In this document: positions 15,415 to 25,252 of the stretch, piece by piece
Position numbering within the stretch: position 1 is the first letter of the stretch
Layout: each line of letters starts with the position of its first letter
Source: Octopus vulgaris
Lineage: Eukaryota
Direction of reading: 5' to 3'
DNA length: 64,000 nt
Assembly: GCA_951406725.2 (NCBI GenBank)
Contig: OX597815.1
Span: 162,378,001-162,442,000, forward strand
Translations under genes and position numbers: made by a program
The notes under the pieces: model-generated
What the model saw: only the letters and a program-made list of their open reading frames with translations
What the model was told of the DNA's origin: nothing
Databases searched by the model: none

Positions 15415-15880
15415 GTATAAAAGATGGTCTACAGCAAATATTTTGCTCAATGCCACAGATTTGCTTGTCAGTTGTTTGAAGTTAACCAGTTGAGCATGTC
15501 TCTTAGTGGCTGACGATGTATGCATCCCTGATCATGAGCGGAAGTAGTAGGGGAGCATCATAGCCATGTATTGAGACGAGTACTTTGGGGTTTGGATAAT
15601 TCACCTTTGGAAACATGAGCGTTTCGTTCAACATCCTTAAACAAGCCTTATTCAGGGACTTTTTGAGGGATGGGCTACTCGACCTGAAGATAATTCTAAC
15701 TGGGTCCCACCTGCAAGGTCATGTGCTGTTTATCTTGATATGAGATCACCATGTCACGCACATATTGTTGTGATGCATGTGCCTAGTGTACCCTAGACAT
15801 GATGGGTATACTGGGCTTCGTATATTTTACCCCAGTGTCACTTTGATGGCATACTTTCTCACTCAATAATAATAATAATT
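15415..15880 (+). mobile_element. ~465-bp dispersed retroposon-like repeat with (AAT)n tail; inverted copy at 22433-22918
   Basis: Extensive reverse-complement similarity, e.g. TTTTACCCCAGTGTCACTTTGATGGCAT vs ATGCCATCAAAGTGACACTGGGGTAAAA. Confidence 0.75.
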
Positions 15881-16291
15881 ATTATTATTATCATCTCCGC
15901 CTTATATGTATGTTTTTATTGGAAAAGTTCTTTTCATTGGAGATGTACTTGTTACCTCCGCCTTCGCTAAGGCGGAGGTGTTGTTTTCAGTCGTGTGTGT
16001 TTGTTTGTCTGTGGACAAGATATTTCAAGAATTGCTGGATGGATTTGGATGTAACATTCAGGGATGTTTAGCCTCGAGACTGGAACGAACTCATTATATT
16101 TTGGAATCGATCCGGTACCGGACATCGATTCTGAATTATTTTTCCTGTTTTTTTTGTTTTTTTTTAATTAACCTTTGTGAGCGGTCGAGTTCATTTTTAG
16201 TATTCTCGTTTGTGAGAGCAGCCGAGTTTCTTTCAGATATTCTCATTTTTAGAATCATCTCTGGGTAATCGTTGAGAGGACGTTAGTGTTA

Positions 16292-18112
16292 TAGTCGAGT
16301 CATTTGATTCCCTGTTGCATTTGATGTGTGTTCGCTCCATGTGAGTCTTGCTATTGTTTAATTGTGGAAGGTCTACCACACCTAATTGTTATATTGTTAA
16401 ATTTGTTACCTGGGAATTTTTCATTTTTCTTCCCCATTTATGGGTGAAGTTGTGAATAACAAAAATGTGTAGAGTCAACCAGTTCCAGCAGGCAGTTCTG
16501 CTGCAGTAACTGGGAAAATTCTAACCGCAGATGTCCTGCAGGTGAGAGAAATTCGACTGAACGACACGAATTTCAAGAAATACAACGAATTGTTAAGAAA
16601 GGAAGGCGACAGCCTGAAGCTGACACCGCCTAAGGAAATTACTGAAAAAAAAAAAAAACTGAAAAGAGGACTGTAATACACAGAACGTTGTCTCTTGCTG
16701 CAAAAAGAGTGGAAATAGCTGCATTAGAGGCAGCCGAGGAATGCTTGAAAGAGATCAAAAGTCTAACGACATACTACACAAGAGGAATGAAATATGGCAC
16801 AGTGGAGGTACGCTTCGCGAGTGAAGAAGAAGCGATAAAACACTCCATTGTGCCTTTGAGATCAACAGAGTGGGTACTACTACCAACCTATTGTTGCAGA
16901 CGTGCAGCCAGAGTTAGGATTGGTAGAGTACTCCCAGAAATTGACGAGGAGTGACTGGTGGCAGCCATCCTCTATAATACAGAGGAAGAAGCCAAAATTC
17001 TGAAAATCACAAGAACCACGGAGGTAAACTGCTGGGGATACGGCATCGAGGTGTCGGTTCACATCAGTTTACCAGACCTCCACAAAATTGCTGAGGAATT
17101 GGTGTTGCCGGATGAGACGAAGCTGAGAGTTGTGGTGGAGGGAAGACCTCCTATTTGCTTTCCATGTGGAGTACGGGGACACATGAAAGCTAAATGTCCA
17201 CAGAAACCTGAAGAGGAGGAGATAGAGAAAAAACAAGACGAAGGAATTTCAACCGCAGAGGAGCAAAGTATGGAGGAACAGTATACAGTGGTGAAGAGGA
17301 AAGAGTAACACGGACTCTCCAACAAAAATGTATCAGGAAGAAAAGAAAGGGAAGTGGAGAAGAGACGCAGAGTGTGAAACAAGGAAAAACGAACGAGCAG
17401 AAAAAAATGAAAGGCCAACAAAGGTAAGTGACGCAGTCGAAGAGCATAAACAGGAACCGATATCAACAACCAGCAAGGAGGAGAAAGTACAGAAGAAAAA
17501 GGAAGATGAAAGAGAAAGGATAGCAATACAGAGATAGAAATACCAGCAACAGTAGAAGAGATTGGTGAAGAAAAACGAACAGTGATACCGAAGGGAAAAT
17601 ACTTATGAGATATGATACAATACACAAAAAGTGTAGAGATAGAAAAAAAAGATAGCGAAAATGGAGAACGTAATCAGAGTTAAATTGACACCCAACGAGA
17701 ACAATATAGGTTTGAAAGCTGTTCTGCTGGAAAGAGAGAGGAAAGAACGGTTAAAGGAATTGTTAGGTGAAAAGTTAGAAGTGACACCGGTACAGTTTCG
17801 TTTTGATGAATTGCTGCCGGAGGTATTTGGCGTAAATGAGGAAATTAAGAACTGAATAATTAATGACTTCGTGTATTTTTTAAGGGAAAACCAGCAGATA
17901 CAAGGCAGATATTGAACTGTTAGTAAAATGTCATATAAAAACAATAAAATGAAACTGCCTGCTTAAGGGGTCAGGTATGTCATTCCATCCTCATTTTTCA
18001 TTGTATCAATAATTTTATACGATATGTGTTTTTATGTACCCCATTGTATTGTTTTGTCTATTTTCGTGTTGTCCACTCTTTATAGAGGTCTTATGCCTAA
18101 TAAAAGAAATCA
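16292..18112 (+). mobile_element. ORF1-only Tx1/L1-like element, unit A1 (frameshifted)
   Basis: ATG at 16440; ORF pieces 16688-16954, 16958-17308 (CFPCGVRGHMKAKC knuckle) and 17661-17855; ends AATAAAAGAAATCA; no RT or endonuclease. Confidence 0.75.
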
Positions 18113-18126
18113 GGACGTTGGTGTTG

Positions 18127-19740
18127 TATTGAGCCATTTGATTTCCTGTTGCATTTGATGTGTGTTCGCTTCATGTAAATCTTGTTTGAATTGTTGAAGG
18201 TCTACCGCACCTAATTGTTATATTACTGAATTGTTGAATTTATTCTTACCTGAATTTTTATTTTACTTCTCCATTTATAGGTGAAGTTGTGGATAATATC
18301 GCTATGGAATGTCAACCAGTTCCAGAAGGCAGTTACACTGCAGTGACTGGGAAAAGTCTAACAGTAGATATAATACTGCAAGTTAGAGACATTCAGCTGG
18401 AAGAAACAAATTTCAAGAGGTACAATGAACTATTAAGAAAGGAAAGAGACAGCCTAAGGCTGACGCCGCCTAAGGAAGTTATTGAAACGACAGAGAGAAG
18501 GACAATAATATACAGAATGCTGTCTATTGAAATAGTCGCAGTAGAGGCAGTCGAAGAATGCTTTAGAGAAGTCAAAGATCTAACGGCGTACTACACAAGA
18601 GGTAAGAAATACGGCACAGTGGAGGTACGCTTCGCGAGTGAAGAAGAAGCGATAAAACACCCCACTGTGCCTTTGAGATCAACTGAGTGGGTACTACTAC
18701 CAATTTACTGTGCTAAACGTGCGGCCAGAGTGAGGATTGGTAGAGTGCCCCCAGAAATTGAGGTGTGGCTGGTGGCAGCCATCCTTTTTAATACAGAGGA
18801 GGATACGAAAATACTGAAAATTACAAGAACTACGGAGGTAAACTGCTGGGGATACGGCCTTGAGGTGACGACTCACATCAATTTACCAGACCTCCACAAA
18901 ATTGCAGAGGAATTGGTGTTGCCGGACGAGACGAAGCTGAAAGTTGTAGTGGAAGGAAAACCTCCCGTATGCTATCAATGTGGAGTAAGGGGACACATGA
19001 AAGCTAAGTGTCCCCAGAAACACGAAGAGAAGGTGACGGATATGGAACAGCAAGAAGTAGACGTTCAAGGCATAGAGGAACCAGTGGAACATATGGAAGA
19101 AAGATACACAGTGGTGAAGAGGAAGAAAAGACGAGAAAACTCGGACTTACTACCAAAGAGTCCCATGAAGAAAAGAAAAGGAAGTGTAGAGGAAAGACAA
19201 GGGTTACCAAAAGGAGGAAAAGCGAACGAGCAGAAAAGAAACGAGATGTCGGCAAAATTAAACGAGAATGACAAAGAGAGAAAACAGAGAGCGATACCAT
19301 TAATTAGCCCGGGGGAGAAAGTAAAAGGACAGGAAAAAAAAAGGAAGATAGAAGAGAAATGACAACAACGTAGAGTGAAAGACAAGCAGAGAAGGAAGAG
19401 ATGGAAATAGCAACAACAGCAGAAGAGGTTAGTGATGGAAATCAGAAACCTTGGAGGGAAAACAAGAAGAACTATGATACAGCACAGAAAAAAATGTAGA
19501 AATTTAAAAAAAGATCACGGACTTTAAAAAAAAGATTATGAAAAAAACAGAGTAATGAACTGTGATACGTAAACAGAAAAATGGAACTGCTTGTTTAGTT
19601 GGGGCCATGCAGCCATTTCATCTCACCATTTATTCATAATTTCATCCGTTATTTGTTTTAGTGTATCCCTCTGTATTGTTTTGTCTGTTTTTGTACTGTC
19701 CCATCTTTATAAGAGGCCTTGTGCCTAATAAAAGAAATCA
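18127..19740 (+). mobile_element. ORF1-only Tx1/L1-like element, unit A2
   Basis: Same 5' start as A1 (TATTGAGCCATTTGATT); ends GGCCTTGTGCCTAATAAAAGAAATCA; bounded by GGACGTTGGTGTTG at 18113-18126 and 19741-19754. Confidence 0.8.
18289..19362 (+). CDS. Tx1/L1-type ORF1-like nucleic-acid-binding protein (RRM-like segments + CX2CX4HX4C zinc knuckle + K/E-rich tail)
   Basis: 357-codon open frame with SYTAV, YGTVEVRFASEE, RVRIGRVPPEI and VEGKPPVCYQCGVRGHMKAKC. The ATG homologous to A1 is ATA at 18277; the first in-frame ATG is at 18304. Confidence 0.7.
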   Translation: MDNIAMECQPVPEGSYTAVTGKSLTVDIILQVRDIQLEETNFKRYNELLRKERDSLRLTPPKEVIETTERRTIIYRMLSIEIVAVEAVEECFREVKDLTAYYTRGKKYGTVEVRFASEEEAIKHPTVPLRSTEWVLLPIYCAKRAARVRIGRVPPEIEVWLVAAILFNTEEDTKILKITRTTEVNCWGYGLEVTTHINLPDLHKIAEELVLPDETKLKVVVEGKPPVCYQCGVRGHMKAKCPQKHEEKVTDMEQQEVDVQGIEEPVEHMEERYTVVKRKKRRENSDLLPKSPMKKRKGSVEERQGLPKGGKANEQKRNEMSAKLNENDKERKQRAIPLISPGEKVKGQEKKRKIEEK

Positions 19741-19770
19741 GGACGTTGGTGTTGTCTCGGCGGAGGTTTG

Positions 19771-20080
19771 TGTCACAGGCGGTTTGAGTTGTCTTTTGTC
19801 GTGTTAGATGTAAGTCATGGTGTTAAATATTTGCTTGATTGATTGTTACTGTTCAAATTGTTGCTATTGTCATTTTGAATTGTTGTTTTTTTCCATTGTG
19901 AAGAGATAGTGCTGCCCGATGACATAAGATTGAGAGTGGTGGTGGAGAGCAGGCCGCCTATGTGTTATTTTTATATAACATCTCATTTTCATTCGTTTTA
20001 TGTTTTTGTCCCCACTGTGGTGTTGTGTCTGTCTGTAGTGTCCCCTCTGTGTTATGGCCGTAGGTTCAAATAAAGAAACA
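19771..20080 (+). mobile_element. Unit B1: 310-bp internally deleted derivative of unit B2
   Basis: 5' ~125 bp match B2 start, ~70 bp match B2 20855-20921, and 3' ~110 bp match B2 22219-22333. Confidence 0.85.
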
Positions 20081-20110
20081 GGACGTTGGTGTTGCTTCGG
20101 CGTAGGTTTG

Positions 20111-22333
20111 TGTCACAGGCGGTTTGAGTTGTTTTTTGTTATGTTAAACGTAAGTCTTAGTGTTAAATATTTGATTGATTGATTGTTACTGTTCAAATTG
20201 TTGCTCGTGTTATTTTGAATTCTGTTTTTTTTCCCATTGTGGGGAAAATGGAAAGAAACGTCAGCAGGTGGCCATAGTTATGGAAAAGAGATAGACGTGG
20301 AAACGCTGGAAGTAAGTGAAATAAAGGTTGAACCTCGAAAAATGAAGGAGTGCGAGAGGTTGCTGGAAAGAGACAGAAATACACTGAAGTTAACGCCGCC
20401 TGTGGAACTAACAACCAATGTAACGAAAAGGACGGTGATATATAAGACAATGAATATAGCAACAAGGAAAATAGAAATAGCGAGAATAGAGGCTATTGAA
20501 GAGTGTTTAAAGCGTATAAAAAGACTAACCACATTTATAACAAGAGGGAGAAAATACGCTACTGTGAAGGTGCGCTTTACCTCAGAAAAGGAAGCAATGA
20601 AGCACCCAACGGAGACAATAAGATCGGAAGAATGGGTGCTTTTGCCATCGTACTGTGGAAAACGTGCGGCCAGGGTGCGAGTTGGCAAAGTACCCCAGAG
20701 CTGAAAGAAACATAGCTGATGACCACCATGATGTATAACATGAATGAGGAGGGCAAGATACTGAAGGTCACAAGGACCCAAAGAGTTAGTTACTGGGGAT
20801 ATGGAATAGAGTTAACCGTTCAAGCAACAGTGGAAGACCTAAACAGAATTGTCGAAGAGATAGTGCTGCCCGATGACATAAGATTGAGAGTGGTGGTGGA
20901 GGGAAAGCCACCTCTATGTTATACATGTTGGGAAAGGGTCACATGATGGTGAGGTGCCTCCAGAGAGAACAACAAATAGAGCAGACGGAGAGGCAGGAGA
21001 GCACGGACCAGGTGGTACAGGTCGAGATAAAGGTGAAAGCAACGGAGGAGGGGTTCACGGTGTTTGAAAAAGAAAGAGAAGTGGGAGAGTGAGCTTTCTG
21101 CCAGAGTAGCAGAAAAAGAAGAAGAGATGGAAAAGGAAGAGACCAGAAGGAAGCAAGACGAAATGGTGGTGGATAAAAAAAGGGAAAAGTGTTCAAGGAA
21201 AAGACATTGGTGAAGACACCGCTAGTTCCAGTGGAGGAAAGAACATTTAGAAACGCAAGTGGAGAGACTGTTCAGAGTGGTGGAAGAAAAGAAGGTACCA
21301 GGAGCGGAGAAGGAAAAGAGAAATCTAATAAGAAAAGGAAAATTTCGATGGAATTTTGTGACGTATGCAAAAAGCAAAGAAACTGAAAAGAAAGTATTAA
21401 AGTTTAAACATATTATAAGAGTCAAGTTGCCCACGGATGTGTATTCCGAGAATGTGAAGGCCGTCGTGGTTGACAAGGATACCTACAACAGACTAAAATA
21501 TATGTGTGGAGAAGGGATTGACCCGCCATGAGTGAAGATGGAGTTCGATGAATTGCCACCTGTAGTGGAGCTAGCAGATTTAGAACATTTCATGAAATAT
21601 TAAAAACCAAAAAAAAAATTAAATTGTTTTATTGAAAAAAGAGGGATCTTTTCGGTTTGAACGGCAGTTTTTTCTAGCGGTGTCATATGAAATTGTCACC
21701 CATAATTATGACCCTGGTATCTATTGCATTTCAATCTATTTTAGGGCCAGGGTTAGTTAGGGTTAGGGTTAGGGGTGGGGGGAAGGGCATCTTTTTTTTC
21801 TTCACAAATGTAAATAAACCCAATCTGTTTCTTAAACGAGGGATATATTCATACGGCACAGAATGTTTTCACCTCAATAGACGTCAGTGATTGGTTGAAA
21901 TTGCAGAAATTGAAGAAAAAAACGACAAATATCTTACAAACCATAGACTTTTCTCAATAAAGCCAAGAGAAAAAGATGTTTTATAAACACATTCAACCAG
22001 TATACGAAGTTTAGTTACGTGGAAATTATTTTAAAAAACTGCCTTTCAAACCGAAAAAATCCAGAAAGAGAAAAAAGTAAAATTGTTTCATTTAAAAAAA
22101 GAGTAAAAACGAGATTAAGAAAAAACAATAAGATAATAGAACGATTGTAAATAGTTTATATAAACATTCAAACGATACTGCATGGGAGTGGGACCCATGC
22201 AACCATTTCATTTTTCATTTTTATGTAACATCTCATTTTCATTCGTTTTATGTTTTTGTTCCCACCGTGGTGTTGTGTCTGTCTTTGTAGTGTCCCCTCT
22301 GTGTTGTGGCTGTAGAGCCAAAATAAAGAAACA
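20111..22333 (+). mobile_element. ORF1-only Tx1/L1-like element, unit B2 (second family, frameshifted; carries a MITE)
   Basis: ORF pieces 20237-20704 and 20719-20946 (CYTC...GHMMVRC split by a frameshift) are homologous to A2; 21259-21531 is homologous to A1 17661-17855; ends AAATAAAGAAACA. Confidence 0.78.
21644..22062. mobile_element. Merlin-like MITE family 1 (copy 1), nested in B2
   Basis: TIRs GGATCTTTTCGGTTTGAACGGCAGTTTTT / AAAAACTGCCTTTCAAACCGAAAAAATCC; TSD AAAAAGAG / AGAAAGAG (7/8); internal TTAGGG repeats. Confidence 0.8.
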
Positions 22334-22432
22334 TTGACGGAGCTTTGCGCTATCTGAGTGCTCTTCTTCTTCTTCTTCTTATTATTATTTTTTCTTCCTT
22401 TTTTTTCTTCTTTCAAATTCCTTCCTTCAAAT

Positions 22433-22918
22433 TATTATTATTATTATTGAGTGAGAGAGCAGTGCATGCCATCAAAGTGACACTGGGGTAAAATATACGA
22501 AGCCCAATATACCCATCATGACTACCCGTCTGATAAGGGTACACCAGGCACATGCATCACAACCATATGTGCGCGACATGGTGATCTCATATCAAGATAA
22601 ACAGCACATGACCTTGCAGGTGGGGCCCAGTTAGAATTTTCTTCAGGTCGAGTAGCCCATCCCACTTAAAAGGTCCCTGACTAAGGGTTGTTTAAGGACG
22701 TTGAACAAAACACCCATGTTTCCAAATGTGAATCATCCAAATCCCAAACAATCCCTCTCAACACATGGCTATGATGCTCCCCCACTACTTCTGCTCGTGA
22801 TCAGAGATGCACGTATCGTCAGCCACTAAGGGACATGCTCAACTGGTTAAGGTCAAACAACTGACAAGCAAATCTGTGGTATTGAGCAGAATATTTGCTG
22901 TAGCCCATCTTTTATACC
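22433..22918 (-). mobile_element. Dispersed (AAT)-tailed repeat, inverted copy of 15415-15880
   Basis: Reverse-complement similarity; flanked by (ATT)n. Confidence 0.75.
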
Positions 22919-23001: not shown

Positions 23002-23737
23002 CGAGATAAACTCTACCGGCACGGAAGTGCCGTCAGCCGGGCCTGCCCGAGGTGTTGCCAGGACGACGAAACCGTCCTGCACGCACTCGTCCAGTGCCCG
23101 AGTATTGCTGAAATATGGGTTTATGTCGAACAGCTACTGTCACGTGTAGGACGGATCCGACTATCGGCCGAATCCATAGTGAAGATTGCCCCGCCGACCT
23201 CCTTTAACAAGGAGGGCGAGGCCGTTTTCTTGTGCCTAGTGGCTGTGGCGAAAGAGGTGGTGTGGTGGACTCGTTTGAAAGGGCTAAAGTCATACACTTT
23301 CCTCTTTGGTCAAGGCCTCATCAACTTTTTCAAGTTTCACTTGAAAAGGAAAATGAGGTTAGAGAGGAAAGTGCTGTCCGATAGCAAGTTTTATGAAAGG
23401 TGGGTGAATTGTGCGAGACTGGCCTGTATAAATGGACCAGTTCTCAGGTTTCGCCTGTGATTTCAAAAAGGTAATACAAAAGGAGAAGAAAGGGGACTCT
23501 CTACACCCCCTTTTTAGACCAGGCTCCCGTTGGCTTTTGTAGGGTTTTTTTCCACCAGGAACCTTTCGAAACGTCTCCCCCTTTTGGGAGTTTTTCATTG
23601 TTTTAATAATCATTGTTTTAAAGTTTTTTACACGGATTTTTTAACAAACGGACAAAACCCTTTGTAACCTTTCGTCCTGTCTTGTCCCTTTATGTAATCA
23701 TGCGTGTCAGCCCTTGTGGCCAATAAAAAAGAATTGA
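23002..23737 (+). mobile_element. L1/Tx1-clade LINE 3' end (C-terminal zinc-binding region + 3' UTR) inside an (ATT)n tract
   Basis: RDKLYRHGSAVSRACPRCCQDDETVLHALVQC (CX2C...HX4C); stop at 23460; tail GCCCTTGTGGCCAATAAAAAAGAATT; homologous to 51840-52200 on the minus strand. Confidence 0.85.
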
Positions 23738-24833: not shown

Positions 24834-25252
24834 GGATCTTTTCGGTTTGAACGGCAGTTTTTTCTAGCGGTGCCATATGAAATTGTCACCCATAATTATG
24901 ACCCTAGTATCGAACTATTGCATTTCAATCTATTTTAGGGTTAGGGTTAGGGTTGGAGTTGGGGGAAGGGTATCTTTTTTTCTTCACAAATGTAAATAAA
25001 CCCAATCTGTTTCTTAAACGAGGGACATATTCATACGGCACAGAATGTTTTCACCTCAATAGACGTCATTGATTGGTTGAAATTGAAGAAATTGAAGAAA
25101 AAACAACAAATATCTTACAAACTATAGAATTTTCTCAATAAAGCCAAGAGAAAAAGATGTTTTATAAACACATTCTACCAGTATACGAAGTTTAAAATTT
25201 TTTAGTTACCTAGAAATTATGTTAAAAACTGCCGTTCAAACTGAAAAGATCC
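24834..25252. mobile_element. Merlin-like MITE family 1 (copy 2)
   Basis: TIRs begin GG; perfect 8-bp TSD CAAGACTC at 24826-24833 and 25253-25260; similar to 21644-22062 throughout. Confidence 0.88.

Follow-up and report, generated by a model that had tools for sequence, protein, structure and literature searches.

Insertion of Tx1-type long interspersed nuclear elements (LINEs) into other transposons, with tandem non-autonomous passengers, is already published, as described in the sections of PMC4494074 used here. Tx1L of Xenopus inserts into Tx1D, and in crocodilians Tx1-Mar and SINEU-3 insert into Mariner-N4_AMi, where they share one target and where SINEU-3 tandems sandwich a duplication; Tx1-9_AMi targets Harbinger, and Tx1-8_Crp and Tx1-4_AMi target long terminal repeat (LTR) elements (PMC4494074). 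In the same sections, target choice by APE-type LINEs is usually credited to the endonuclease encoded in the second open reading frame (ORF2). HAL1, the mammalian half-L1, is described in part of PMC5753468 as a non-autonomous LINE derivative encoding ORF1 only. The layout given for HINE/DINE-1 elements in the relevant part of PMC4067079 comprises a 5' subterminal repeat with an inverted copy, a 3' subterminal repeat, a 3' stem-loop and T-rich flanks. For the octopus, a repeat paper reports 13 recently active L1-Tx1 families (PMC13282606); the words 'target', 'nested' and 'non-autonomous' do not occur in its main text, and its supplements or repeat library may hold the families described below. 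Here we analyzed a window (the whole stretch of 64,000 nucleotides at positions 162,378,001 to 162,442,000 of contig OX597815.1) from the 2.8 Gb assembly of Octopus vulgaris, in which four ORF1-only, HAL1-like elements, as judged from their sequences, are stacked at two fixed sites in the 3' end of a short HINE-like repeat, hereafter the host.

The 5' body of the host, a non-autonomous HINE/DINE-1-like element of ~370 bp, occupies 15951-16291 (forward strand, as are all array features unless stated otherwise) with a 5' hairpin at 15954-15979. It ends in the upstream copy of a target word, site 1 (16278-16291), which differs at two positions from the other copies found at 18113, 19741 and 20081; host sequence picks up again at 22334. 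Insert A1 (16292-18112; row L047 in the ORF1 tree), an ORF1-only element with a broken ORF1, is separated from A2 (18127-19740) by a site-1 target duplication (18113-18126). A2, also ORF1-only, carries an open ORF1 of 352 codons from the first Met (18304-19362), predicted to encode two RRM-like domains and a CCHC knuckle. A regenerated host segment follows (19741-19770), composed of site 1 (19741-19754) and site 2 (19757-19770), the latter overlapping the 3' subterminal repeat. Next come B1 (19771-20080), a B copy with internal deletions, a 30-nt repeat of site 1 plus site 2 (20081-20110), and B2 (20111-22333), an ORF1-only element with a broken ORF1 inserted at site 2. The host 3' end (22334-22365) consists of the site-2 duplication, which is its 3' subterminal repeat, and the terminal hairpin.

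The original prediction, made from this DNA alone, proposed four stacked inserts with the target at each junction, and both the junction words and the coordinates agree with it. Its description of the inserts needs correction in two respects: B2 contains a nested MITE-like element (miniature inverted-repeat transposable element) of 419 bp with 30-bp terminal inverted repeats (21644-22062, strand unassigned), and B1 retains only B2 positions 1-131, 738-812 and 2107-2223, having lost two internal segments. Since its 3' junction lies at site 1, B1 is bounded by the 30-nt repeat; three B-tailed junctions at site 1 are found in all, B1 and two other copies. The prediction also missed that the inserts are devoid of reverse transcriptase (RT), that at least three further lineages use site 1, and that B-type relatives have other fixed targets. 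The order of A before B is geometric, because site 1 lies 16 nt upstream of site 2. The target duplications are 14-15 nt long; the last A of the A tail may be target-derived (56 of 60 A junctions end in A), which would make the A duplication 15 nt.

By sequence comparison, the inserts are HAL1-like elements related to the L1/Tx1-type LINEs of this genome: they combine an ORF1 homologous to that of LINEs and no ORF2 with a LINE-type 3' tail, a target duplication and purifying selection on ORF1. Each is a unit of ~1.8 kb with a T-rich leader, a single ORF and a tail that contains a stem-loop and a poly(A)-signal hexamer and no poly(A) run, and that ends ~6-8 nt past the hexamer, directly on the target. 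This stem-loop and poly(A)-signal tail is common to the inserts and the full LINEs, which also have no poly(A) tails. The A2 ORF1 is 27-36% identical to the ORF1s of 15 LINE copies with APE, RT and zinc-finger domains in the same genome and, at 352 codons, compares with 430-460 amino acids in the longest relatives; its named homologues are Octopus bimaculoides proteins. It matches Pfam zf-CCHC above the cut-off (a CCHC knuckle), and its structural model (predicted local distance difference test score 67.8, core mostly 77-93) has tandem-RRM proteins as best Foldseek matches (E about 1e-5), which points to a predicted tandem-RRM core. The relatives encode an ORF2 with APE endonuclease, RT and zf-RVT and an ORF1 with a zinc knuckle, a feature set that fits the L1 group as a whole; a search with their ORF2 returned three unnamed or hypothetical proteins at 29%. 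The 114 candidate junctions at sites 1 and 2 (~6 of them spurious, all kept in the count) were without exception free of ORF2 within 1.5 kb upstream, whereas 25 of 25 control LINE tails had it. Between subfamilies, dN/dS computed on stop-free ORF1 cores had a median of 0.14 and a maximum of 0.33 in the 58 of 210 pairs with unsaturated dS above 0.15; on these values ORF1 is under purifying selection.

The two insertion sites in the host end are used genome-wide by A and B relatives. Among the 30 best matches to the A 5' end, 28 by eye and 27 by script begin in the host end, two being the window's own; 24 of the 30 best matches to B lie in the host 3' end, and four of the six others, which were fetched, form a clade of their own. 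When tails were searched without regard to flanks, 22 of 30 A tails by eye (21 by script) stood at site 1 and the other eight (nine by script) in a short interspersed nuclear element (SINE) and other sequences. For B-type tails the same search placed 10 or 11 of 30 at site 2 and two at site 1; the rest belong to sister subfamilies, with four to five at one LTR site. Junction patterns blind to the family gave 35, 50 and 13 matches versus 0, 1 and 0 for backwards-read controls, and only 12 of 1500 random 24-nt windows matched either site, which excludes chance. Besides the three B-tailed copies, three distant ORF1 lineages occur at site 1.

The host itself is a high-copy repeat, with 4705 first-look candidates (40 scored, at 84-87% identity). 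Its 29 other top matches comprise 27 empty copies, in which site 1, site 2 and the terminal hairpin each occur once without interruption, and two that are filled at site 1, one (L016) by an A copy and the other (L006) by a third family, C. A strict pattern found 1619 empty site-1 copies, whereas the pattern of a tail joined to site 1 had 50 matches, two of them altered empty hosts, so that ~3% of site-1 copies are filled. The targeting of this host end by two related families, put forward in the original prediction, is thereby upheld against two of the refuting outcomes named there: other A and B copies mostly share the two sites, and the target word belongs to empty hosts and not to the inserts.

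The host likely belongs to the Helentron-type elements by its layout. It has a 5' subterminal repeat with a nearby inverted copy (a 12-bp 5' stem), a 3' subterminal repeat matching the 5' one over ~9 bp, shorter than published, a 3' stem-loop and T-rich flanks. Site 2 overlaps the 3' subterminal repeat, and both this repeat and the hairpin stay intact downstream after either insertion. The Helentron assignment of the original prediction stands only as far as this layout goes; no RepHel partner sharing the host ends turned up when 20 kb was examined at each of 10 loci, taken from 150 listed loci and 1172 candidates. Ribozymes or other Rfam families above threshold were likewise absent from 10 loci. 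The host is longer at three loci (L062, L063, L376), where it contains a 37-bp two-copy tandem, and two loci on contig C18 (L017 and L018) have identical printed flanks and are probably a segmental or assembly duplicate.

In a 139-row ORF1 tree (midpoint root, long branches), a 109-row group (SH-aLRT, the approximate likelihood-ratio branch support, 92) unites A, B and their sisters and is free of all 18 autonomous rows. The target follows the ORF1 subfamily on this tree, with 21 changes on 101 labelled rows versus a shuffled minimum of 44; labels were set by hand, 38 of the 139 rows carry none, and kin share labels. Sister subfamilies each keep a target of their own, be it LTRs, a SINE or other repeats. 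In LTR-like sequences, 11 loci carry sister ORF1-only subfamilies (L093, L094, L321, L329, L331, L334, L340, L346, L350, L411, L417), mostly ~30 nt downstream of a TATA-like box as read by eye; L094 is a five-unit array beside an integrase ORF. Subfamilies at eight loci (L324, L332, L338, L339, L341, L344, L345, L348) sit at the end of one other repeat, whose downstream words resemble a hammerhead core and which we presume may be Penelope-like; Rfam gave no such match. An abundant SINE-like repeat has some A-type copies close to its 5' end (L228, L229, L238, L322, L328, L335). Short 5' leaders resembling remnants of present or earlier targets occur in several subfamilies and one full LINE (L054, L058, L245, L063, L075, L083, L092, L095, L158).

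Full LINE families of this genome are often site-specific as well: four of four fetched copies of one family, and three copies of another, share their 3' flank. A young full-length family with an ORF2 of 1140 amino acids has one 3' flank in four of four fetched dispersed copies and also forms a five-unit tandem array (L156 and L157 at G000:C2 ~73.04-73.07 Mb, L302-L305). At L382 and L312, a single duplicated target holds a tandem of two complete ORF1-only copies and one full LINE, and copies 80-84% like these ORF1-only copies occur at a different target (L094).

We hypothesize, as an explanation that is on balance likely, if only slightly so, that the inserts were added one by one through target-primed reverse transcription with ORF2 supplied by a site-specific full-length Tx1-type partner, which was not found. 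The observations under it are direct: fixed sites, duplications of 14-15 bp, independent copies, inserts devoid of ORF2, selection on ORF1, and a tail in common with full LINEs. Target-primed reverse transcription by ORF1-only elements needs ORF2 in trans, and it is to this process that the target duplication and the LINE tail point. The tail of each subfamily would be recognized by a partner whose APE endonuclease cuts the site of that subfamily, and the duplication would rebuild the site, allowing arrays to grow with the host end signals intact downstream. A transcript that started in an upstream target, and carried a 30-nt target leader, would give the exact structure of B1 when inserted at site 1. 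The element's own ORF1p may package its RNA and help it compete for ORF2. Borrowing in trans is supported by the tandems of L382 and L312, which unite ORF1-only copies and a full LINE at one target while similar copies at L094 use a different one, and by the sharing of site 1 among three distant ORF1 lineages and the three B-tailed copies. The site-specificity of full LINE families here and, as a precedent, the target shared by Tx1-Mar and SINEU-3 (PMC4494074) also speak for it.

Several points weigh against a borrowed ORF2. Neither the family-blind patterns (35, 50 and 13 matches) nor the full set of 32 A-tail and 39 B-tail matches revealed a LINE, full-length or 5'-truncated, at site 1 or 2. 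Of the 150 closest ORF1 loci, 40 were examined, and not one continued into an ORF2 start or showed a LINE at the sites; a zf-RVT search also gave no LINE at either site. LINEs normally favor their own RNA. The pattern of one target per subfamily would need many matched partners, and the 18 autonomous rows fall outside the 109-row clade, so that A and B are not simple deletion products of the sampled LINEs. Inserts are stacked far more often than site occupancy would give, a result that sequence cutting on its own does not predict. Three candidate partners were rejected: L330 combines a host and an ORF1 with a piece of ORF2 in sense orientation, but that piece lacks its 5' part, breaks up the ORF1 and runs out in a SINE with the host remainder missing, and was read as a nested insertion; L326 is a separate downstream LINE; and L253, where a piece of ORF2 precedes a truncated B, lies at another site.

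Other explanations were weighed against trans borrowing. One reading takes the repeated word for a terminal part of A and B themselves, a short direct repeat rather than a target; it would fit the presence of the word at both ends of most copies, but the word occurs once in each of the 1619 empty hosts, and relatives of A and B elsewhere lack it and have other duplications; this reading is refuted and has next to no probability left. Capture by the host or local duplication, with the block then spread as a unit by rolling-circle transposition, would agree with the host end signals being intact downstream of every insert. It is refuted as the origin, and very improbable, on several grounds: target duplications flank each insert, the make-up of arrays varies between loci, and A1 and A2, at 77% identity, fall in different subclades of the ORF1 tree, which makes them separate arrivals and not a local tandem duplication. 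B1 and B2 are 89-91% identical over three pieces. The filled copies include no near-identical pairs in the tree (the shortest end branch among host-site rows is 0.033) and are thus independent, in keeping with the original prediction, which had named a block recurring only as one unit as a refuting outcome; the end branches of A1 and A2 (0.044 and 0.048) do not resolve the order of arrival within arrays. We consider unlikely an RNA-templated memory, by which the target-derived 3' end of a read-through transcript would anneal to nicked DNA at a matching site, the subfamily re-inserting where its parent sat. It would account for inserts that end directly on the target with no poly(A) tail, for targets that follow lineage, and for target-derived 5' leaders (B1 and the L054/L058/L245 group), and target-like RNA that anneals helps SART1 and R1Bm to prime accurately (PMC7265360, in the part used). 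However, it leaves unexplained three distant lineages on the same base of site 1 and the off-target A tails in a SINE and other sequences, and the full LINEs here likewise have no poly(A) tails.

A further alternative, doubtful yet with some claim, draws in part on the stacking. Among the other copies in hosts, 11 of 23 for B and 8 of 26 for A have an insert immediately upstream (counted by eye), giving p values of 2e-11 (B) and 6e-7 (A) against 3% occupancy, and of 0.003 (B) and 0.13 (A) at 20% occupancy. Stacking is not random; the age of the hosts may partly account for it, host identity having a median of 86% in filled copies versus 88% in top-hit empties. ORF1p might tether the particle to the transcription-initiation complex on the host repeat, with a loosely specific borrowed ORF2 nicking ~30 bases downstream of TATA and thereby supplying a promoter for the insert. 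In an automated test, 10 of 34 target classes had a strict TATA hexamer 24-38 nt before the duplication begins, versus 51 of 837 control windows (6%); TATA is also seen by eye in the LTR targets of sister subfamilies. A LINE family whose flanks are unrelated (L158, L299, L300, L385, L395) has it ~30 nt upstream in 5 of 9 copies by hand count and in 2 of 6 held-out cases (p = 0.047), all distances beyond the automated test and the held-out set having been read by eye. The selection on ORF1 fits, as does the binding of TBP, Brf1 and Bdp1 by the ORF1p of TRE5-A (PMC5911963, in the part used). This idea, however, was formed after the data were seen, and held-out loci supported it in 3 of 9 classes (2 of 9 without one doubtful duplication, p = 0.10). 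The host here has no strict TATA (0 of 12), with 7 of 12 showing a looser T/A run ~31 nt upstream; site 2 lies another 16 nt downstream, the SINE targets are without TATA, and the predicted ORF1p shows RNA-binding folds only. Tethering alone also leaves base-exact, subfamily-specific sites unexplained. A wider version, which we hold only tentatively and rate as rather improbable, is that the ORF1-only lineage picks its own site: ORF1p together with target-derived RNA ends would dock a borrowed RT at the transcription starts of other mobile elements, each subfamily pirating one host promoter and piling up on a few active copies.

Around the array, two 88%-identical inverted copies of a ~470-bp repeat flank the host (15415-15883 and 22430-22917); both end in an AAT-type run facing it and are possibly two LINE 3' fragments in flanking microsatellites. 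A piece from the 3' part of an L1/Tx1-type ORF2, matching zf-RVT, lies at 23002-23460. The 419-bp element nested in B2 has a second copy in the window (24834-25252) and is absent from other B copies; across loci it is common, often within or beside A, B and C copies.

For ORF1-only Tx1-type elements with fixed targets, a Helentron target or TATA-spaced LINE insertion, we found no literature in a search that lay outside Repbase and most subscription papers. The octopus case offers base-exact specificity in elements without an endonuclease, and a single genome supplies many natural subfamilies and targets; for this reason the choice of site by ORF2, ORF1p or RNA ends becomes testable by swaps. 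It also extends the known Tx1-type targets by a Helentron-like end and suggests a three-level chain of parasites, in which a HINE depends on a Helentron partner and a half-LINE on a LINE partner.

Compared with the Tx1-clade systems, as far as PMC4494074 describes them in the sections used, the octopus array shares a fixed site within a high-copy non-autonomous DNA transposon, a target duplication, tandems that sandwich the duplication, non-autonomous passengers on a shared target, and possible co-transcription from the flank. It differs in its Helentron-like host, in having two sites 16 nt apart with different families, and in passengers that encode ORF1; whereas Tx1-Mar occupies its own target, the octopus sites yielded no autonomous copy. 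The host has the same layout as HINE/DINE-1 elements, but its perfect subterminal match is ~9 bp rather than the 12-15 given in the part of PMC4067079 consulted, and lies nearer the 3' end. Like HAL1, the inserts are non-autonomous LINE derivatives with ORF1 as sole coding content; unlike HAL1, they derive from L1/Tx1-type elements, have an RRM-RRM-CCHC ORF1, and reside in a cephalopod. Their targets are base-exact and subfamily-specific, whereas the description of HAL1 available in PMC5753468 mentions none. TRE5-A of Dictyostelium, in the portion of PMC5911963 used, is likewise an L1-group element, with an ORF1p tied to target choice near a promoter; it differs in being autonomous and in using a window upstream of Pol III genes that is specific for position and not for bases. 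A comparable contact by the octopus ORF1p is hypothetical; if the transcription-start reading were true, these elements would be an RNA polymerase II counterpart of TRE5-A targeting, useful for site-directed insertion tools.

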